DNA of 64,000 nt from assembly GCA_013415865.1 (NCBI GenBank), contig CP058896.1, positions 971,957 through 1,035,956 on the forward strand, written 5' to 3'. The stretch is from Methanomassiliicoccales archaeon (GTDB lineage: Archaea; Thermoplasmatota; Thermoplasmata; Methanomassiliicoccales; UBA472). The translations under genes were made by a program, and so were the position numbers. Below are positions 11,566 to 51,392 of the stretch, one piece after another. Within the stretch, counting starts at the first letter, position 1. Each line of letters begins with the position of its first letter. Under the pieces are notes generated by a model. It did not search any database. It saw nothing but the letters and a program-made list of their open reading frames with translations, and had not been told where the DNA came from.

Positions 11566-12594
11566 CTAACGGCCATATTTCTTGAGCAATACTGAAAGGT
11601 CCCTTGTCATCTCAGGGCCGCTCGCCGGTTCATCAGGGATGTCGGTTATCCCCGTGATGACGGCTATCAGGCGGATCGTCGATTCGTTATCGTCCTCTAT
11701 CCTCACACCAAATTTAATGTTCGCGTCTGGATCAAGATGTCCGGTTATGCCTTGGAAGACCTTGTAGGCCTTCCTGAGGGTCAGCGTGCTACCTCCTGAC
11801 AGATGGACCAGCGCTCCCGTCCCTCCTTTGATGTCAATGTCAAGGAGGGGATTGTTGATCGCATCATTGACGACCCCATCAGGGTCAGCGTTCTCGGCAT
11901 ATAATATGGTAGATACCCCACCATGGGAAATGACCGTCTTCAGGTCGGCGAAATCGAGATTGATGAGCGATGGTTTGGTAAGCGCGTCCACTATGCCCCT
12001 AATAAGTTCGGCGATGAGCTGGTCCATGACCCCTAATGCCTGATTGAAGGGGATGTTCCCACATATTTCAATGAGCCTGTTATTGTCCAACACCAGTAAC
12101 GTGTCGGATGATTCGCTCAGACGCCGCAGGCCCTTGAGAGCGTTGCTCTTCCTTACCCCCCCTTCGATATGGAAGGGCAAAGTGGCGATCGATATCACGA
12201 CCGCCCCGTTACGCTTGGCCGTCTCAGCGACTATCGGTGCAGCGCCGGTACCGGTCCCCCCGCCCATCCCGACGATGATGAAGCAGAGGTCTACATCCCT
12301 TAGGGTCTGGTCGATGATCCCGCCTGCATTCATTGCGCATGTCTCTCCTACATCGACCCTTCCACCCGCGCCACGCCCCTTTGTGTACTCAGCACCTATG
12401 AGAAGGCGGTTCTTCGCGCAAGTTGCCTTAAGGCTGATGGCGTCTGTGTTAATTGCGAGCGTGTCGGCCCCTTCGATCCCTATCTTGTTGAGCCTGTGTA
12501 TGCTGTTACAACCCGCCCCACCGCACCCCACTACGAGTATCTTTAACCGATGGATATCGTAATCTGATGCTTCGCCTCCGTAGCTGGACCCCAT
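11566..12594 (-). CDS. ftsZ: Divergent FtsZ-family tubulin-like GTPase (third paralog; FtsZ2-like by its RHH-gene synteny)
   Basis: ORF track (342 aa). Contains GCGGAGCN, NTDA, the tubulin signature [12 protein letters not shown] and the T7-loop NLDFADL. It lacks the long C-terminal tail of the other two copies. It lies 28 nt downstream of the RHH gene on the same strand. Confidence 0.85.
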   Translation of the reverse strand: MGSSYGGEASDYDIHRLKILVVGCGGAGCNSIHRLNKIGIEGADTLAINTDAISLKATCAKNRLLIGAEYTKGRGAGGRVDVGETCAMNAGGIIDQTLRDVDLCFIIVGMGGGTGTGAAPIVAETAKRNGAVVISIATLPFHIEGGVRKSNALKGLRRLSESSDTLLVLDNNRLIEICGNIPFNQALGVMDQLIAELIRGIVDALTKPSLINLDFADLKTVISHGGVSTILYAENADPDGVVNDAINNPLLDIDIKGGTGALVHLSGGSTLTLRKAYKVFQGITGHLDPDANIKFGVRIEDDNESTIRLIAVITGITDIPDEPASGPEMTRDLSVLLKKYGR

Positions 12595-12622
12595 CCCTGT
12601 TCCTCCGGAGGGCTTGAGCGAG

Positions 12623-12964
12623 TCATTTCATCTCGTTCACGGCCCTTTCGAGACGCATGCGAACGTATTCCCGGACCGCGTTCCTGATCGCGTCATCGAT
12701 CGATACCGAATCACCTTCTTTTACCAAGGCCTCCAGCTCAACAAGTTTACCTTTTGGGAGCTCCACCGTGACCCTTTCGATGTATTCTGGCGTAAAATGG
12801 GTCTCGATGAAGTTGTCGATGGCTGCTCGTATGGCGTCCGATATTGTCGGATATTTGCCATCATTGACGAGCCCCTGAAGGGCCTGCAGCTTGTCAGCAG
12901 GTAAGCGGATCGTGATTCTCTCGGTATCGCTCATGGCACAACTCTGGAACGATGTGTCTGACAT
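12623..12964 (-). CDS. Ribbon-helix-helix (CopG/Arc/MetJ) DNA-binding protein with two RHH repeats in one chain
   Basis: ORF track (113 aa). Repeat 1 is ERITIRLPADKLQALQGLVNDGKYPTISDAIRAAIDNFIE. Repeat 2 is ERVTVELPKGKLVELEALVKEGDSVSIDDAIRNAVREYVR. They are about 40% identical over 40 aa by eye. An alternative start is the second MSDT at 12934. Confidence 0.8.
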   Translation of the reverse strand: MSDTSFQSCAMSDTERITIRLPADKLQALQGLVNDGKYPTISDAIRAAIDNFIETHFTPEYIERVTVELPKGKLVELEALVKEGDSVSIDDAIRNAVREYVRMRLERAVNEMK

Positions 12965-15278: not shown

Positions 15279-16409
15279 ATGATGAAATCGCTCGTAGAGG
15301 AAGCTTTGGCTAAAGATAATGATGTGCCGATGAGGCCCGAACCCAGGATGCAGATGGCCCCACCGCCGATGATGGACAACACCGATGCAGAGCTGATCGA
15401 GCTCTTGCAGAAACTAAGGACGAACATCAAGATAATCGGTGTGGGGGGCGGCGGGTCCAACACTGTCACCAGGATCTCTGAGGAGAACATCGCCGGGGCT
15501 GAGACCTACGCGGCGAACACTGACGCACAGCATCTTCTGGCATCCAAGGCACAGCATAAGATATTGCTCGGAAGGAGGAGCACCCGAGGTCTGGGTGCAG
15601 GTGCCATCCCGCAGATGGGCGAGGCTGCCGCCAAAGAGGCCGATGTAGAGCTGAAGAAGGCCTTGAGCGACGCAAATATAGTATTCGTCACTGCAGGAAT
15701 GGGAGGGGGGACCGGTACCGGCGCTGCTGCGGTCGTGGCGGAGACCGCAAAGGAACTAGGGGCCCTGACGATCGCGGTCGTGACGACGCCGTTCAAGGGA
15801 GAGGGTAAGCTTCGTTTTGAGAATGCTGAGTGGGGACTACAGCGCCTCAGGAATGCTGCGGACACGGTCATCGTCATCCCGAACGATAAGCTCCTCCAGC
15901 TATATCCTAAACTTTCTCTCAATGCTGCCTTCAAGGTTGCCGATGACGTCCTTTACAGGGCCATCAAAGGCATCACCGAGCTCATAACCAAGCCTGGCCT
16001 GGTCAACCTGGACTTCAATGACCTAAAGACCATTATGAAGGGCGCAGGGGTCGCCATGATCGGGATGGGAGAGAGCGACGGGGACCCTGCGGACAGGGCC
16101 ATGGAGGCCATAGAGATGGCTTTGAACTCCCCACTGCTCGAGGTCGACATATCGACCGCCACCGGTGCGCTCGTGAACGTCATGGGTGGGCCGGATATGA
16201 CCATAGCAGACGCCCAGAAGGTCGCCGAAGAGGTACATAAGCGCATAAGTCCCAATGCCAGGATAATATGGGGAGCGGGCGTGGACCCATCTTTGGAACA
16301 CAAGATCAGGGTCATGGTGGTGATGTCGGGTGTCAGATCGTCCCAGATCCTAGGAAGGTCAGAGGAAGCGCATAAGATCAAAGGGGCAGACCTCGACTTC
16401 ATCAAGTGA
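15279..16409 (+). CDS. ftsZ: Cell division GTPase FtsZ (copy a)
   Basis: ORF track (376 aa). Contains [28 protein letters not shown] and NLDFNDL. About 70% aa identity to copy b by eye. Confidence 0.93.
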
Positions 16410-16436
16410 CTCTTGAGGGTTCAACAGACGGTCAAA

Positions 16437-16480
16437 AAGGCGGCCGGTCAGGCCGCCTTGTGAATTCTTTATCTTCTTCC
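16437..16480. terminator. Bidirectional terminator-like hairpin between convergent ftsZ-a and the XRE gene
   Basis: A 9-bp stem AAGGCGGCC/GGCCGCCTT (16437..16459, loop GGTCA) is followed by a T-rich tract on the + strand (ttgtgaattctttatcttctt). It is preceded by A5 on the + strand, which reads as T5 on the - strand. Confidence 0.5.
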
Positions 16481-16539
16481 CTAAACAGAACAGGGCATGA
16501 TGCAGATGGACATCTGGTCTCGATCGCTCCATCTGACGG

Positions 16540-16731
16540 TCAGTCAGATGTGAACAATTCCTCGACCCTGACCTTGAACAGCCTTGCTATCCTAATGGCC
16601 AATTTCAAAGAAGGATCGGAGCGTTCATTCTCGATCGCGATTATCCGTTGCCTTGTGACCCCCACCTTTTTCGCCAGCTCTTCCTGGGTTATGTTCGTCA
16701 TCGCCCTGTACATTCTTATCTTATTTTTCAT
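16540..16731 (-). CDS. Small XRE/Cro-C1-type helix-turn-helix transcriptional regulator (63 aa)
   Basis: ORF track. The HTH TQEELAKKVGVTRQRIIAIENER is typical of the short XRE family. It is transcribed divergently from ftsZ-b across the AT-rich region. Confidence 0.85.
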   Translation of the reverse strand: MKNKIRMYRAMTNITQEELAKKVGVTRQRIIAIENERSDPSLKLAIRIARLFKVRVEELFTSD

Positions 16732-16766
16732 GTCAGCCCAGAAGGAGATGATTGTGATATTAAATT

Positions 16767-16798
16767 AACATTTTGTTAATTATTATATACAAAATGTT
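16767..16798. promoter_or_regulatory. Perfect 10-bp inverted repeat AACATTTTGT-N12-ACAAAATGTT around a TATA-like core (candidate operator/promoter of the XRE gene)
   Basis: Read directly: arms at 16767..16776 and 16789..16798, with spacer TAATTATTATAT. On the reverse strand the spacer reads as a TATA box about 50 nt upstream of the XRE ATG. Confidence 0.5.
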
Positions 16799-16811
16799 TA
16801 TCACAATAAAC

Positions 16812-16837
16812 ATAATGTTAATTATTATATACATTAT
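16812..16837. promoter_or_regulatory. Second inverted repeat ATAATGT-N12-ACATTAT with the identical TAATTATTATAT core
   Basis: Arms at 16812..16818 and 16831..16837. The 18-nt TGTTAATTATTATATACA is perfectly repeated at 16774..16791 and 16816..16833, a 42-bp period. Confidence 0.45.
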
Positions 16838-17024
16838 TTATTGATTATTAATTATAATATAGCATATTAAATAAATCAATGCCAGTATTTATAATATATA
16901 TTATAATAATATTATTTAACTGCAAACATGACGCTTGGGACCGAAACTCTTTTTTATATTCGAAACGGTAACCACCATAAGGAGTGATACCTTAGGGTAT
17001 ATCCTTTGTCAAGGGGAGTCTCAT

Positions 17025-18131
17025 ATGAAATCATTCATCACAGATGCGATGTCAAAGGCGGGGCCTTCTAGCGCCCCAGAGATGATGAGCAGCTATAGGA
17101 GCCCGACCGCGGACGATGAGGAGCTCGAGCGCATACTCATGAGCCTAAAGACCAATGTGAAGATCGTTGGATGTGGTGGCGGGGGATGCAACACCATAAA
17201 CAGGCTTTATGAAGCGAACATCAGGGACGCGGAGCTGTTCGCGCTCAATACCGATGCACAACATCTGCTGATAGTCCGCGCCAACAAGAAGATACTGTTG
17301 GGCCGGAGGAGCACTCGTGGACTTGGTGCTGGCGCATTGCCTCAGGTAGGCGAGGAGGCCGCCCGTGAAGCTGAGGAGGACATACGCAAGGCGCTAACGG
17401 GGGCGGACATCGTCTTTGTGACGGCCGGTCTGGGAGGAGGTACTGGGACAGGGTCTGCCCCTTATGTTGCCCAGATTGCAAAGGACATGGGTGCATTGAC
17501 CGTTGCAATAGTCACATCGCCGTTCAAAGCGGAAGGTGCGATAAGAACTGAGAACTTCGAGTGGGGCCTCGAAAGGTTACGCGGGATCGCTGATACGGTC
17601 ATCGTTGTCCCGAACGAGAAGCTCCTAGAGCTGTGCCCCAGGTATTCCCTCAATGCGGCGTTCAAGGTCGCTGATGAGGTCCTGATGAGGGCCATCAAGG
17701 GCATCACCGAGCTCATAACCAAGCCAGGACTGGTAAACCTGGACTTCAATGACCTTAGGACGATCATGAAGGGCGCAGGGGTCGCCATGATCGGGATGGG
17801 CGAGGGCGAGGATGACGACAAGGTCGAACAGGCGGTCAGTGAAGCGATCAACTCCCCGCTCATCGACGTCGACATCACAGGAGCTAGCGGCGCCCTCATA
17901 AATGTCACCGGCGGCGAGGACATGACGGTCAGCGAGGCTGAGAAGGTCGCCGAGATAATTCAGTCCAAGATCAACCCGAACGCCAGGATCATCTGGGGGG
18001 CGTCCATCGATCCATCCCTTGAGAACAAGATGAGGGTGATGGTGGTCGTCACCGGTGTCAAATCCAAATATGTCCTTGGACATAAAGAAGGACAGGCCCA
18101 GAAGGTGATGGGGGTAGACTTCATTAAGTGA
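17025..18131 (+). CDS. ftsZ: Cell division GTPase FtsZ (copy b, in the conserved ftsZ-secE-spt5-rpl11 synteny)
   Basis: ORF track 16935..18131, trimmed to ATG 17025 ([11 protein letters not shown]...) with a GGGGAG SD 8 nt upstream. Contains [27 protein letters not shown] and NLDFNDL. Confidence 0.93.
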
Positions 18132-18197: not shown

Positions 18198-18413
18198 ATG
18201 GACATAATCGAGAAATCCCAGGAGGTCCAAGACGGGATCGAAGAGAGGGTCAGGAACCTCGGGAAGGGCAAGTATGGGCGCGTCCTGAAGATGGCGCGCA
18301 GGCCCACCAACGACGAGTATTCCAAGATCGTCCTGATAACTGGCATAGGCATAGTCCTGATTGGATTGCTAGGTTTCGCCATATATTGGATATGGAAGTC
18401 CGTCTCGCCTTGA
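18198..18413 (+). CDS. secE: Preprotein translocase subunit SecE / Sec61-gamma
   Basis: ORF track (71 aa). It has a single C-terminal TM (IVLITGIGIVLIGLLGFAIYWIW) and the conserved position before spt5. Confidence 0.85.
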   Translation: MDIIEKSQEVQDGIEERVRNLGKGKYGRVLKMARRPTNDEYSKIVLITGIGIVLIGLLGFAIYWIWKSVSP

Positions 18414-22119: not shown

Positions 22120-23079
22120 ATGTCCCTCAAACTCGGGGAGATCTATCGCTTGGCCATTGAAAAGGGGATGGAGAACGACGTCCGCACCAAGGAGGAGATC
22201 GCTTCTGACCTCGCACGGGTCCAGAAGAGATATGAAAAGATGGACGTCAAGGAAAAGGACCGTTTTGACACGGACGCGCTATGGAACCCCTATGCGGACT
22301 GCCGGGTCCTCTTTGGGGACCTTGAGAAGGAGGTCAGGACCGTCCTTTGGGGCATCGACATCGCGACCCCGGAGGTCCTTCTGGCCGACCGCCTGAGGGA
22401 GAAGGGAAGAAGGATAGACGCTCTGATAAGCCATCATCCCATCGGAAGGGCAAGGGCCAGGTTGCATGAGGCGATGCCGGTGCTCGAATACCTTATGCGC
22501 TCTGCTGGGGTCCCGATCACTACGGCCGAGGACATCCTCGGGCCGAGGATGAGGGAGATCCGCAATCTTACGGCCGTTGACAATCATATGCAGACGATAG
22601 ATGCGGCTAGACTGTTGGACATACCATTGATGTGCCTGCACTCTTGCACCGACAATCTTGTGCAGAGGTTCATAGAGAAGCTGGTGGAAGAAAGAAGGCC
22701 AGAAAGGATCGAGGATATCCTCGAGCTTCTGCTGGAGCTTCCAGAGTTCGATCGCATGGCACGGAACGGGAACGGCCCTGAGGTCTATGTCGGGGACAGA
22801 GGAAGGCGTGCTGGGAAGATCATGGTCAAGATGTGCGGCGGGACCTCTGGCCCTAAGGAGATGTTCGAAGAGCTCTCGGACGCTGGCGTCGGAACCTACA
22901 TGTGCATGCACCTCCCTGAGAACCAGCTCGAGGAGGCAAAGAAACATCATATCAATATCATCATTACAGGTCATGAGGCCTCGGACTCGCTAGGAGTCAA
23001 TCTTCTGGCGGACGAGGTCGAGGCCAGAGGGGTGGAGGTCGTCCCGTTCTCAGGGTTGATCAGGGTGAAGAGGAATTGA
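22120..23079 (+). CDS. NIF3-family (dinuclear metal centre) protein
   Basis: ORF track (319 aa). NIF3-like blocks are present (WGIDIATPEVLLA, ALISHHPIG, GHEASDSLG). Its stop overlaps the orc1 TTG start. Confidence 0.6.
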   Translation: MSLKLGEIYRLAIEKGMENDVRTKEEIASDLARVQKRYEKMDVKEKDRFDTDALWNPYADCRVLFGDLEKEVRTVLWGIDIATPEVLLADRLREKGRRIDALISHHPIGRARARLHEAMPVLEYLMRSAGVPITTAEDILGPRMREIRNLTAVDNHMQTIDAARLLDIPLMCLHSCTDNLVQRFIEKLVEERRPERIEDILELLLELPEFDRMARNGNGPEVYVGDRGRRAGKIMVKMCGGTSGPKEMFEELSDAGVGTYMCMHLPENQLEEAKKHHINIIITGHEASDSLGVNLLADEVEARGVEVVPFSGLIRVKRN

Positions 23080-24245
23080 GCTCAAAACTTAAGCGGCATG
23101 GTAGGGTCTTCAAGGACCAGTCGAAGCTTTCCTTCGATTATGTACCTGAAAGGCTGGTCCATCGTGAAAAGCAATTGGAGATATTGAGCTCCATCTTCAG
23201 ACCGGTCCTGGAGGGACAGATGTCCCAGACCGCCATGCTCGTGGGCAGCGTCGGGACGGGCAAGACGGCGACGACGAAAAGGTTCTGCCTTGATGCGCAG
23301 AGGGCATCTGAGGGGTCGGGGCGCGCCATCGATTTCATCATCGTGAACTGCAGACAAAGGAGCTCTGAGAATGCCGTCCTCCAGAGGTTGATCGCTCATT
23401 TCGACGACCGCTACCCCGACAGGGGCTTCTCGACCGCTGAGATGCTCAGGGCGATCGCGAAACACATCGAAAAGAGAAAGATACACCTGATAGTCGTCCT
23501 GGACGAGGCGGACGTCCTTGTGAGAAGGGGTGCCTCGGACCTCATCTACCAATTGTCGCGGTTCGATGAGGAGAAGATCTGCCCAAGGCCATCGCTCTCC
23601 CTGATCCTGATCTCCCAAAAATATGTGCTTGACATGCTGGACCAGGCGGCGGTCTCGACTTTCCGCCGAGCGAACGCCATCCGCTTTGAGAGATACAGCT
23701 CTCAGGAGCTGAAGGACATTGTGAGCTCCAGGGCGGAACTGGCCCTGTTCCCAGGTTCGATCGATGATGGCCCCGTCCAACTTATCGCCGATATCGCCTC
23801 AGAGTTCGGTGATGCAAGGTTCGCCATCGAGCTCCTGGAAAAAGCTGGGATGATTGCCGAGGAGGGGGGGCATGATTCCATATTGGCCGAGCACGTACGT
23901 GCAGCGAAGGCGCTCACATATTCCGTGGTCACCGAATCGAAAATAGAAGACCTGGACAGACAAAGAAAGCTGGTCCTTTTGGCCATATGCCGGTCCATGA
24001 AGGACCAGGCCTATGTGACGACCGGGGAGGTCGAGAGGGCATATAAGGTAGTAGCTGAGGAACATGGGGAGAAGGCAAGGGCCCACACGCAGTTCTGGGA
24101 ATATGTACAGGACCTTTCCAACAATGGGCTGATCAGCACGAAGGTCACGGGAGACCCGTCGGGAGGTAGGACGACATACATCTCATTGCCAGATATTCCT
24201 GCGAAGGTCCTCGCCGAAAAATTGGAGTCCGTGCTGCGGCCGTGA
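23076..24245 (+). CDS. orc1: Orc1/Cdc6 replication initiator
   Basis: ORF track (389 aa). Contains LSFDYVPERLVHREKQLEIL, Walker A GSVGTGKT, Walker B VVLDEAD and a C-terminal winged helix. The TTG start overlaps the NIF3 stop (TTGA). Confidence 0.92.
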   Translation: MSSKLKRHGRVFKDQSKLSFDYVPERLVHREKQLEILSSIFRPVLEGQMSQTAMLVGSVGTGKTATTKRFCLDAQRASEGSGRAIDFIIVNCRQRSSENAVLQRLIAHFDDRYPDRGFSTAEMLRAIAKHIEKRKIHLIVVLDEADVLVRRGASDLIYQLSRFDEEKICPRPSLSLILISQKYVLDMLDQAAVSTFRRANAIRFERYSSQELKDIVSSRAELALFPGSIDDGPVQLIADIASEFGDARFAIELLEKAGMIAEEGGHDSILAEHVRAAKALTYSVVTESKIEDLDRQRKLVLLAICRSMKDQAYVTTGEVERAYKVVAEEHGEKARAHTQFWEYVQDLSNNGLISTKVTGDPSGGRTTYISLPDIPAKVLAEKLESVLRP

Positions 24246-49758: not shown

Positions 49759-49873
49759 CAGACCTTAAGAGGGATGCCGTAGTTAAATATTGTCTGGGGC
49801 TTGGTCTTCGATGATCGATCGTGTCCCGGACCGGGTAGAACGAGAATATTAAATAAGAGGATGTACAAGTAAT

Positions 49874-49884
49874 GTATACAACTT
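49874..49884 (+). promoter_or_regulatory. Shared promoter/operator core GTATACAACTT (copy 1, upstream of the wHTH regulator gene)
   Basis: The identical 11-mer ends exactly 26 nt before ATG 49910. It is followed by nnnGTTGnnATC, as in copy 2. A TATA-like aatattaaataa lies at 49845..49856. Confidence 0.55.
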
Positions 49885-49909
49885 GTAGTTGATATCTAAG
49901 GTGGCCCCT

Positions 49910-50575
49910 ATGGACGAGCTCGACATGCTGCTCTCGGTGATAGAGAACCCTACGAGAAGGAAGATACTGGAGGCGCTGATGCGTGAACCGCATTATCCAC
50001 TTCAGCTCTCCAGGGAGCTGGGCCTAAGCCAGCAAGGGATAATGAAGCACCTCAAGGTGTTGGAGGACTACGACCTTGTCAGGTCTTACAGCGAGGAGAG
50101 CGACCAGGGGGGCCCATCAAGGAAGATCTATGTTCCGACCACCGGGTTCACGATCACGGTGGACATCGGGCCAGGTCTTTTCAACACAGAGCTCGTGAAA
50201 AGGGTCCTTGAGATGGACGATGTCAATGAAAAGGAGATGTCCAGTTCAGATCTGAAAGAATTCAAGGACAAGCTCATGCAGGCGAGGGGCAAGATCAGGG
50301 ACATCGACCGGGAACTGGAGGCGCTTGCGGAGAGGAGGGCCCGCCTGATACAGGAGAAGGAAAAGAGCCTGAACGACGCGTACAATCTGATCGAGGCGCT
50401 TATCGATGATTACCATGAAAGGCGCGTTCTTTATGCCTATATGCAAAGACCTGAGCTTGACGAGAAGGACCTGGCCCGTACGCTGGGCCTTAGGGACGAG
50501 TATGTGAAGGATACTCTAGAGAGATATGCCGGGGGTGTAAAAGATGACCGAAGGGGGCAGCGACAGGAGCGATAA
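49910..50575 (+). CDS. Winged-helix (ArsR/Phr-like) regulator with long C-terminal coiled coil; candidate heat-shock regulator
   Basis: ORF track 49889..50575 (TTG). I prefer ATG 49910 (MDELDMLLSVIENPTRRKILEALMREPHYPLQLSRELGLSQQGIMKHLKVLEDYDLV), followed by a coiled-coil region. Confidence 0.75.
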   Translation: MDELDMLLSVIENPTRRKILEALMREPHYPLQLSRELGLSQQGIMKHLKVLEDYDLVRSYSEESDQGGPSRKIYVPTTGFTITVDIGPGLFNTELVKRVLEMDDVNEKEMSSSDLKEFKDKLMQARGKIRDIDRELEALAERRARLIQEKEKSLNDAYNLIEALIDDYHERRVLYAYMQRPELDEKDLARTLGLRDEYVKDTLERYAGGVKDDRRGQRQER

Positions 50576-50849: not shown

Positions 50850-50888
50850 AATTTAAATAGAAGCGCAAACTATACTATACATTGTAAA

Positions 50889-50899
50889 GTATACAACTT
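50889..50899 (+). promoter_or_regulatory. Shared promoter/operator core GTATACAACTT (copy 2, upstream of hsp20)
   Basis: The identical 11-mer ends exactly 26 nt before ATG 50925. ACAAC-N5-GTTGT dyad. A TATA-like atttaaatag lies at 50851..50860. Confidence 0.55.
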
Positions 50900-50924
50900 A
50901 AGGTTGTAATCAGGAGGGATCGAC

Positions 50925-51392
50925 ATGGACGCGAAAAGAAGGACAGAACTGGTCCCGTTCCAGTGGGGACCTATGAGCATCTTCGAGGAGCTTGAGAGGT
51001 TCATAAATGACAGGACCATGGACCTTGACAGGTTCTGGTTCCCCCAGGTCGTCGCGGGAGGGTACAGGGTACCTGCCATCGACCTTAGAGAGGAAGGGGA
51101 CAGGTATGTGCTCACAGCAGACCTGCCTGGTATGTCCAAGGAGGACGTGAACATCGAGATCGGCGATGGCGTTGTGGAGATCACCGCCAAGAAGGAGACC
51201 TCCAAGGATGAGGAGAAGGAGGGCTACATCCGCAAGGAGCGCGGGTCCATGTACTACCACCGGAGGCTGGCGATGCCCGAGAACGTCGACACGGAGGGCA
51301 TCTCAGCAAAGCTTAACAACGGGGTGTTGGAGCTGACGCTCCCGAAGGTTAAGGAAGCGGAGAGGGCCAAGAGGAAGGTCGACATCCAATGA
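50925..51392 (+). CDS. hsp20: Small heat-shock protein (Hsp20/alpha-crystallin)
   Basis: ORF track (155 aa). ACD core: PAIDLREEGDRYVLTADLPGMSKEDVNIEI...GVLELTLPK. Confidence 0.92.
   Translation: MDAKRRTELVPFQWGPMSIFEELERFINDRTMDLDRFWFPQVVAGGYRVPAIDLREEGDRYVLTADLPGMSKEDVNIEIGDGVVEITAKKETSKDEEKEGYIRKERGSMYYHRRLAMPENVDTEGISAKLNNGVLELTLPKVKEAERAKRKVDIQ

Follow-up and report, generated by a model that had tools for sequence, protein, structure and literature searches.

The stretch of DNA analyzed here, hereafter the window, comprises 64 kb from a Methanomassiliicoccales archaeon (54.5% GC), the nearest relative of which is the metagenome-assembled genome JAJFUT01 (97% identity in FtsZ-b). Within it, the xre gene, which encodes a small helix-turn-helix (HTH) protein, and ftsZ-b, the second gene of a tandem ftsZ pair, are divergently oriented and separated by a 293-nt gap that contains an AT-rich block (Table 1). 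This block (16761-16935) has 25 G+C in 175 nt (14%); at its minimum, 16757-16916, there are 17 G+C in 160 nt, and this is the sole 160-nt stretch of at most 30% GC in the window. An initial annotation of the DNA had singled out the block for its extreme composition, two palindromes and a repeated 18-mer, and all of its statements on the sequence proved correct on recount. The two dyads (AACATTTTGT / ACAAAATGTT at 16767-16798 and ATAATGT / ACATTAT at 16812-16837) are both perfect and enclose the same 12-nt core, TAATTATTATAT. The 18-mer TGTTAATTATTATATACA occurs in exactly two copies, at 16774 and 16816, 42 bp apart, and no further copy is found in the window, even with three mismatches allowed.

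A phased array of palindromes between xre and ftsZ-b

The significance of these repeats was assessed with 2000 dinucleotide-preserving shuffles of 16757-16930. Because only two shuffles yielded an exact direct repeat of at least 18 nt, the 18-nt repeat is regarded as real. A perfect dyad of at least 10 bp with a spacer of at most 20 nt arose in 484 shuffles; therefore, the dyads alone are not beyond chance in DNA so rich in AT. A repeat finder reported a period of 21 nt, in which the arms of both dyads are small ACA-N3-TGT palindromes. The dyads had been taken as units of 10- or 7-bp arms around a 12-nt core; their sequences stand, but the unit does not, since the arms belong to neighboring ACA-N3-TGT sites and the supposed cores are the AT-rich, TATA-like DNA that separates them. 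What actually repeats is a palindrome of 13-17 bp, TTACA-N3-TGTAA, which takes the form AACA-N3-TGTT in this genome. It recurs at five positions spaced exactly 21 bp, or two helical turns, apart, giving an array of three full sites (A, B, and C) and two outer half-sites (0 and D). The second dyad, which was thought to have no gene to serve, consists of sites C and D of this single array.

To score the sites, a 17-column (17-nt) matrix was built from the aligned sites of the orthologous loci L002-L011 only, with the window left out. Four positions of the array score highly in the window (Table 1), whereas no other site in the 64 kb exceeds 11.2 bits, and four sites of at least 15 bits on this matrix were obtained in 1 of 2000 composition-matched shuffles. 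The degenerate pattern TTACANNNTGTAA, with two mismatches, has 17 matches in the window against 9.3 expected (a number reached in 2 of 100 shuffles), and it is too loose to pick out the array because only one match (16766) falls in the block. Column by column, the alignment of 17 orthologs is most conserved at the AC and TG dinucleotides, which return every 21 bp, and the DNA between them drifts. The TGT of half-site 0 is invariant or nearly so in these 17 loci, exactly 21 bp from site A, and at the other end of the array the tACAT of half-site D is kept across orthologs at +42 from site B.

Table 1. Positions of the array, promoters and genes discussed in the text (numbering of the 64-kb window)
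Feature	Position	Strand	Remarks
xre	16540-16731	-	63-aa HTH_3 (Cro/C1-type) protein, CylR2-like fold; proposed array binder
Half-site 0	16745-16757 (center 16751)		Conserved TGT at 16753-16755; between array and xre start codon
Operator site A (predicted), TAACATTTTGTTA	16766-16778 (center 16772)		20.5 bits
TATA-like segment 1	16779-16786	-	Proposed xre TATA box; inside the spacer (12 nt) of the first dyad
Operator site B (predicted), ATACAAAATGTTT	16787-16799 (center 16793)		21.7 bits; conserved in phase
Operator site C (predicted), AAACATAATGTTA	16808-16820 (center 16814)		20.1 bits; conserved in phase
TATA-like segment 2	16821-16828		Inside the spacer of the second dyad
Half-site D, ATACATTATTTAT	16829-16841 (center 16835)		15.5 bits
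AT-rich spacer	16842-16939		19% GC in the window; sequence poorly conserved, length conserved
ftsZ-b core promoter	16941-16959	+	BRE CCGAAA 16941-16946; TATA TTTTATAT 16952-16959
ftsZ-b	17025-18131	+	TIGR00065, 6e-129; ancestral ftsZ-secE-spt5-rpl11 position; divergent from xre
SecE-like ORF	18198-18413		21.3 bits, under the Pfam cut-off of 22.7
orc1/cdc6	23076-24245		Orc1/Cdc6 gene; overlaps the end of a NIF3-like gene

Occurrence of the array in Thermoplasmata and of its motif in other operons

A scan of species-representative genomes gave 80 syntenic Thermoplasmata loci (861 kb) that share the gene order TBP, TatD, ftsZ-a, ftsZ-b, (secE), spt5, rpl11. An xre gene lies between ftsZ-a and ftsZ-b in 13 of the 80, and three more distinct xre loci (L082, L084, and L085) were added from exact-protein look-ups. 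Within the 80 loci, arrays with a 21-bp period are found only where xre is present, and the array-positive loci include L013 and L018, neither of which was used for the matrix. The spacer between ftsZ-a and ftsZ-b in xre-less loci is 120-260 nt long, has 44-60% GC, and lacks both the AT block and the array sites; the gap in xre-bearing loci is ~300 nt long with 26-40% GC. The comparison with related genomes that the initial annotation had proposed shows the sites and their 21-bp phase conserved in the xre-bearing loci and the block absent from those without xre.

In a neighbor-joining tree of FtsZ-b, Spt5, and L11 (no bootstrap), the xre-bearing genomes that could be placed form one clade, within which FtsZ-b is 75-97% identical, and the sister clade includes Methanomassiliicoccus-like genomes without xre. 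Because sister lineages lack both elements and the xre genomes are monophyletic, xre and the AT block are one clade-specific insertion, and the ftsZ-a/ftsZ-b tandem is older, ancestral across Thermoplasmata. Between ftsZ-a and xre, some loci have acquired further genes (DUF1801 in L003 and a methyltransferase gene in L082); between xre and ftsZ-b, none was found in any xre-bearing locus. In L085, the closest distinct relative, the two 18-mers are alike at 16 of 18 positions; therefore, the exact duplication is recent and the architecture old, and the exact identity of the 18-mers is specific to the lineage of the window.

The XRE protein matches Pfam HTH_3 (5e-16, residues 5-59 of 63), so that a single Cro/C1-type domain fills the whole protein, as in CylR2-like repressors of ~65 aa, and its relatives form a large family of HTH_3 proteins of 63-72 aa. 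A profile of this family finds DR_2454 (9k3w) in the PDB at 6e-29 over its full length and CylR2 (1utx/2xiu) at ~1e-22 over 61 residues. The AlphaFold model of XRE (predicted local distance difference test score, 94) is superimposable in Foldseek on 9k3w and CylR2 1utx with template-modeling scores of 0.95-0.96, and on CylR2 with a root-mean-square deviation of 0.9 Å; the similarity to CylR2 thus extends over the full length in both sequence and fold. Matches to NCBIfam RstR, HipB, and HigA are weak and below the cut-offs (HipB and HigA far below). No gene for a membrane-protein partner (CylR1 or DUF2178) lies upstream of xre in the window, and no open reading frame (ORF) of at least 50 aa partners it in the manner of a type II toxin-antitoxin module; xre is flanked only by a probable terminator hairpin and by the AT block. 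This G+C-rich hairpin (GGCGGCC-GGTCA-GGCCGCC, 16436-16462, flanked by A- and T-runs) separates the convergent genes ftsZ-a (3′ end at 16409) and xre (3′ end at 16540) and probably acts as a terminator in both directions.

Homologs of XRE at 68% identity or less are encoded directly downstream of a gene for a DUF2178 membrane protein. Such two-gene operons, of DUF2178 and an HTH_3 protein of 63-72 aa, are very common in archaea and bacteria (metagenomic and genomic loci L086-L171), and a full-text search for DUF2178 returned no paper on the subfamily. A metagenome scan with the family alignment provided 80 further, unrelated loci, in 68 of which the homolog is 50-66% identical and has the same V(S/T)RQTI recognition helix. 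In these 68 loci, sites of at least 16 bits are 17 times denser between -750 and -350 from the HTH start, the zone that is the promoter of the two-gene operon, than elsewhere (38 in 22.9 kb vs 14 in 147.5 kb, p = 2e-22). When the comparison is limited to loci with 600 nt or more of upstream sequence, a site is present in this zone in 30 of 57 with the RQT helix and in 0 of 8 paralogs with the RRET helix (Fisher p = 0.006). Paired sites at the homologous operons are 21, 21, 21, 21, 21, and 42 bp apart. By this test, which involves neither ftsZ nor the Methanomassiliicoccales clade, the motif can be assigned to the RQT-helix HTH subfamily, and the earlier suggestion that it acts as an operator gains weight from the way it tracks the xre gene and its recognition helix across loci. 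The XRE-like genes of L050 and L057 were considered as orthologs and rejected on account of their RRET helix and different upstream repeat, which is GTTA-N4-TAAC-like.

These distributions bear on two rival readings of the block. The first holds that the block is the remnant or integration scar of a mobile element, with the repeats as non-functional leftovers. It agrees with the status of xre and the block as an insertion relative to sister lineages, with an AT content sharply unlike that of the host genome, and with the frequency of XRE-type genes on mobile elements and in toxin-antitoxin modules, to which the sub-threshold RstR, HipB, and HigA matches may be added. On the other hand, no integrase, transposase, or toxin gene is adjacent, the insertion has been inherited vertically in a monophyletic clade, purifying selection acts on the sites and the 21-bp phase while the flanks drift, and chromosomal DUF2178-HTH operons have this module as their ordinary promoter. 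A scar is therefore quite improbable. In the version of the initial annotation, the inserted element had brought ftsZ-a together with xre; the clade-specific insertion of xre and the AT block stands, but ftsZ-a belongs to the ancestral tandem.

The second reading, also raised in the initial annotation, makes the block the DNA-unwinding element of a replication origin served by orc1/cdc6, on the grounds of its extreme AT-richness, its repeats, and the presence of that gene 6 kb away. The stretch of 17 G+C in 160 nt would indeed be easily unwound, a property that is not specific to origins. However, the published 22-nt origin recognition box (ORB) consensus of Methanomassiliicoccales, GTTCCAGTGGAAATGG-AGGGGT (PMC4153887), is not matched anywhere in the 64 kb, even when as many as three mismatches are tolerated, and its 12-nt core (at most two mismatches) is rarer than chance (5 vs 18 expected) and never near the block, so that no ORB or mini-ORB flanks the AT-rich element. 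The orc1/cdc6 gene is separated from the block by nine genes rather than adjacent to it, and neither repeats nor an ORB element were found around it in the window. Cumulative GC skew rises steadily between 13 and 29 kb without an inflection at 16.8 kb, a test to which a 64-kb window gives limited power. In addition, the block is not conserved in related genomes as an origin would be, being absent from otherwise collinear sister lineages, and its repeats are the motif of a transcription-factor family at ordinary operon promoters. An origin at this site is thus hardly conceivable, and a false lead is removed. The orc1/cdc6 gene itself probably forms an operon with the NIF3-like gene and probably corresponds to the orc1/cdc6.2-type copy, which in Methanomassiliicoccales is described as origin-distal.

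Promoter layout, proposed autoregulation of xre, and possible control of ftsZ-b

Alignment of 23 of the homologous operon promoters on their strongest site gave a consensus that runs, towards the start codon, [..GTAAA] at -42, [..AGTAAA] at -21, TTTATAT, TTACAttATGTAAA at 0, and [TTACAt] at +21; therefore, an archaeal transcription factor B recognition element (BRE) and TATA box are sandwiched between phased sites. The window has the same layout when read towards xre, in the order C, B, TATA-like segment 1, A, half-site 0, and ATG. TATA-like segment 1 occupies the place of TTTATAT between the -21 and the main site, half-site 0 is the counterpart of the half-site at +21 in the canonical family module, and L003 has a perfect GTAAAG-TTTATAAA on the minus strand at this segment. 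The earlier proposal that the first spacer is the TATA box of xre, clamped by an operator, is supported by the occurrence of this layout in 23 independent HTH operons. As in phased-operator autoregulatory arrays, similar palindromes at integral helical turns overlap the candidate core promoter of the regulator's own gene. Thus, the block is probably the promoter-operator region of xre, standing back to back with the ancestral ftsZ-b promoter, from which XRE would repress its own gene.

In the favored model, XRE, presumably as a dimer, recognizes the 13-17-bp palindrome TTACA-N3-TGTAA. Since the sites are exactly 21 bp apart, bound dimers would lie on one face of the DNA and could bind cooperatively over ~100 bp. 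The segments between the sites would be TATA-like elements, with the inner half of a site standing in for the BRE. Because the sites interleave with BRE and TATA, an occupied array would exclude TBP and TFB from the promoter and start-site region of xre and shut the gene off (negative autoregulation). The extreme AT content of the block would then be the sum of operator flanks, TATA elements, and the ~100-nt spacer.

Several points weigh against autorepression from this block or limit it. We infer from sequence comparison that XRE binds the sites, that binding represses, and that a given TATA-like segment fires. The orientation of the promoter in the window is ambiguous, with three TATA-like segments as candidates, because in the subclade of the window the sequence is both palindromic and periodic. 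A module matrix of 81 columns gave in-phase matches on both strands; in 8 of the 17 loci (L004-L008 and L010 among them), its best score was on the minus strand, with site A in the role of main site. The helix reads RQR in the subclade of the window and RQT elsewhere, without a clean matching change in the operator; the RQR/RQT difference co-varies with the base before ACA in the window and L085, but not in L002, L082, and L084. The identity of the operator is not transferable from CylR2, whose promoter region has a different repeat (TTTTGTCAAGTG-T-CACTTGACAAAA). Finally, the model leaves the AT-richness of the spacer and its conserved length unexplained.

At TATA-like segment 2, L004 and L011 have TTTTATAT(A/T)-TACAT on the plus strand, and the segment may be a rightward promoter (P2), an upstream promoter of xre, or mere inter-site DNA. 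After half-site D the spacer extends for 97-107 nt to the BRE of ftsZ-b, and in 16 of 17 loci site B and this BRE are 148-158 bp apart, even though the middle ~70 nt cannot be aligned. Spacer GC ranges across the xre clade from 19% (the window) to 46%; therefore, extreme AT-richness is a trait of the subclade of the window and not of the whole clade. Conserved G+C in the spacer is confined to a CCAGT islet (16882-16886) at a fixed position ~40-46 nt after half-site D; it is CCAGT or CCAGA at the same relative position in most xre-clade loci and GGACA/GGATA-like in L005-L008 and L010. A weak AA/TT periodicity at 9.5 bp (z = 3.7 among 40 periods, in related sequences) was not relied on. In L004-L011, a conserved block, AAATTAAATATTCC-N4-GGAATC, follows half-site D by ~10-35 nt (e.g., L011 5805-5835) and holds an inverted repeat (ATTCCAATTGGAAT in L011, where it is perfect). 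This block, which the subclade of the window lacks, could be the site of a second factor or the start region of a rightward transcript.

Such features could also point to a promoter, at the second repeat, of an unannotated small RNA, as had been suggested earlier, or of a micro-ORF in the spacer: TATA-like segment 2 has no assigned gene, the islet keeps its place, and the L004-L011 block lies just downstream of half-site D. Yet no Rfam match was obtained at the gathering threshold or at E <= 1, RNAalifold found zero conserved pairs in the spacers of six relatives, the spacer sequence is essentially unconserved between subclades, and no ORF of at least 50 aa lies within it. ARAGORN detected no tRNA in the block. 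A transcript of this kind is accordingly improbable.

The core promoter of ftsZ-b, for which a TATA-like element near 16949 had been noted, is real: CCGAAA-N2-TTTTAWA is found 72-118 nt upstream of the ftsZ-b start codon in 17 xre-bearing loci, and xre-less loci have the same promoter (CCGAAA-N2-TTTTAA), so that BRE and TATA are conserved in all relatives, with or without xre. The 5′ leader of ftsZ-b contains a hairpin (GATACC-TTAG-GGTAT, 16986-17001), the stem of which is kept while the loop varies (L002, L082, L084, and L085); the hairpin folds no more stably than shuffled sequences do (z = 0.39).

Autorepression of xre can be extended to a shared control region in which XRE also controls ftsZ-b, either through a repressed distal rightward promoter (site C, TATA-like segment 2, and half-site D) that reads into ftsZ-b or through a length-dependent architectural effect on the proximal promoter. 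Throughout a deep clade, xre and ftsZ-b are divergent neighbors ~300 bp apart with nothing inserted between them, and the array-to-BRE distance is conserved despite unalignable sequence. The plus-strand sequences TGTAAA-TTAATATA-TACAT in L005 and TTTATATT-TACAT in L011 fit the BRE/TATA-site layout of the family, and CylR2 serves overlapping divergent promoters of its own genes and of a target operon (PMC3709268). By contrast, the nearest site is ~105 bp from the BRE, beyond the usual archaeal mechanisms of occlusion or TBP recruitment; the ftsZ-b promoter is the same as in lineages without xre; no matrix site lies at or downstream of its TATA; orientation scoring at TATA-like segment 2 is not decisive; and the adjacency could be mere inheritance of a single insertion. 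Control of ftsZ-b by XRE is therefore a tentative extension, rather unlikely on balance. It is also tempting to speculate, with somewhat greater doubt, that XRE is a lineage-specific cell-division regulator of the Cro/C1 (CylR2) type, in which one nucleoprotein complex of ~100 bp on the phased array would silence xre and, by way of a distal rightward promoter or of the AT spacer with its fixed length, set FtsZ-b relative to FtsZ-a. The array beside ftsZ-b suggests a new regulator of archaeal cell division: a candidate is flagged next to one of the two tandem FtsZ paralogs of Methanomassiliicoccales, and the AT island becomes a defined, directly testable regulatory element.

Relation to other genes of the window and to known systems

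The tandem ftsZ-a/ftsZ-b (15279-18131; products 61-65% identical) lies directly upstream of secE-spt5-rpl11-rpl1-rpl10-rpl12, is conserved in many Thermoplasmata loci (L012-L081), and goes back to an old duplication, shared across the lineage, of the FtsZ gene at the secE/nusG position. A third, divergent FtsZ paralog of 342 aa, ~38-40% identical to the tandem pair, is encoded nearby; thus, there are three FtsZ-family genes within 7 kb. Directly upstream of it and co-oriented (the two genes span 11566-12964, minus strand) is a gene for a 113-aa protein with two ribbon-helix-helix (RHH) repeats in tandem (12623-12964, minus strand), which matches NCBIfam CdrS in two stretches (64.6 bits, below the cut-off). 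This gene pair looks like the haloarchaeal cdrS-ftsZ2 module, with a fused double CdrS. Elsewhere in the window, a 28-nt repeat, GTAAWGTATACAACTT..GGTTGWWATC, with a CAACT-N-AGTTG-type palindrome, occurs at 49869-49896 and 50884-50911, in each case immediately ahead of a plus-strand transcription unit (one has a 228-aa ORF, 49889-50575; in the other, a 155-aa ORF, 50925-51392, precedes one of 727 aa), and is probably the shared operator of a small regulon.

Among known systems, CylR2, which has CylR1 as its membrane partner in the cytolysin locus of Enterococcus faecalis, represses two divergent promoters that overlap, including the one for its own genes (PMC3709268). It is an HTH_3 protein of the same fold and size class (63-66 aa), 35% identical to XRE and with the VSRQTI-type recognition helix that XRE has, and cylR2 follows cylR1 just as the genes of distant XRE homologs directly follow a DUF2178 gene. 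The window differs in that xre has no neighboring membrane-partner gene, the host is an archaeon whose sites are interleaved with BRE/TATA rather than with -35/-10 elements, and the phased sites number five, against one or two inverted repeats at the cytolysin locus. Moreover, the cytolysin promoter region, with its repeat GTCAAGTG-T-CACTTGAC, has no site above 11 bits on the matrix, and the neighbor is a cell-division gene here but a toxin operon there. If XRE is indeed a regulator of cell division, it would also be a recruited, partner-less offshoot of a widespread, uncharacterized two-gene family that pairs a membrane sensor with an HTH protein (DUF2178-HTH). A predicted operator (TTACA-N3-TGTAA with 21-bp phasing and the TATA box bracketed by sites) is provided for a whole family of tiny CylR2-like regulators, which are widespread in archaea and bacteria.

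The repressor and Cro proteins of phages 434 and P22 act at the operators OR1-OR3, short tandem palindromes of the ACAA...TTGT type at a divergent promoter pair, and are autoregulated. They belong to the same HTH_3 superfamily, and P22 c2 and the 434 repressor are among the fold matches to XRE. By contrast, the phage systems have sigma-70 promoters, three irregularly spaced operators, and a separate oligomerization domain in the repressor, whereas the window has a strict 21-bp period and a chromosomal archaeal protein of 63 aa. The archaeal regulators Ss-LrpB, Ptr2, LrpA, Lrs14, and MDR1 have phased operators in their own control regions (reviewed in PMC2995911). In these systems, palindromes two or three turns apart on one face are bound by cooperative dimers, and autoregulation proceeds by occlusion of BRE/TATA or by blocking of RNA polymerase (PMC2995911), a mechanism that would also apply here. 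These regulators are, however, Lrp/AsnC, Lrs14, or DtxR-type proteins rather than a minimal Cro/C1-type HTH_3 protein, and none of them is linked to ftsZ.

A literature search found no paper on an XRE-type factor at an archaeal ftsZ locus. The known transcription factors of archaeal cell division, CdrS/CdrL-ftsZ2 in haloarchaea and aCcr1 in Sulfolobales, are all RHH proteins (PMC7439475, PMC9976878). With them, XRE shares the arrangement of a very small DNA-binding protein beside a division gene in conserved synteny (PMC7439475, PMC9976878). XRE is an HTH_3 protein and not of the CdrS type, and whereas cdrS is co-transcribed with ftsZ2, xre is divergent from ftsZ-b. Because the CdrS-like gene of the window sits elsewhere, beside the third FtsZ, the xre/ftsZ-b pair is a separate and additional arrangement, and XRE, if it is indeed a cell-division regulator, would be the first archaeal transcription factor outside the RHH class to be linked to FtsZ.

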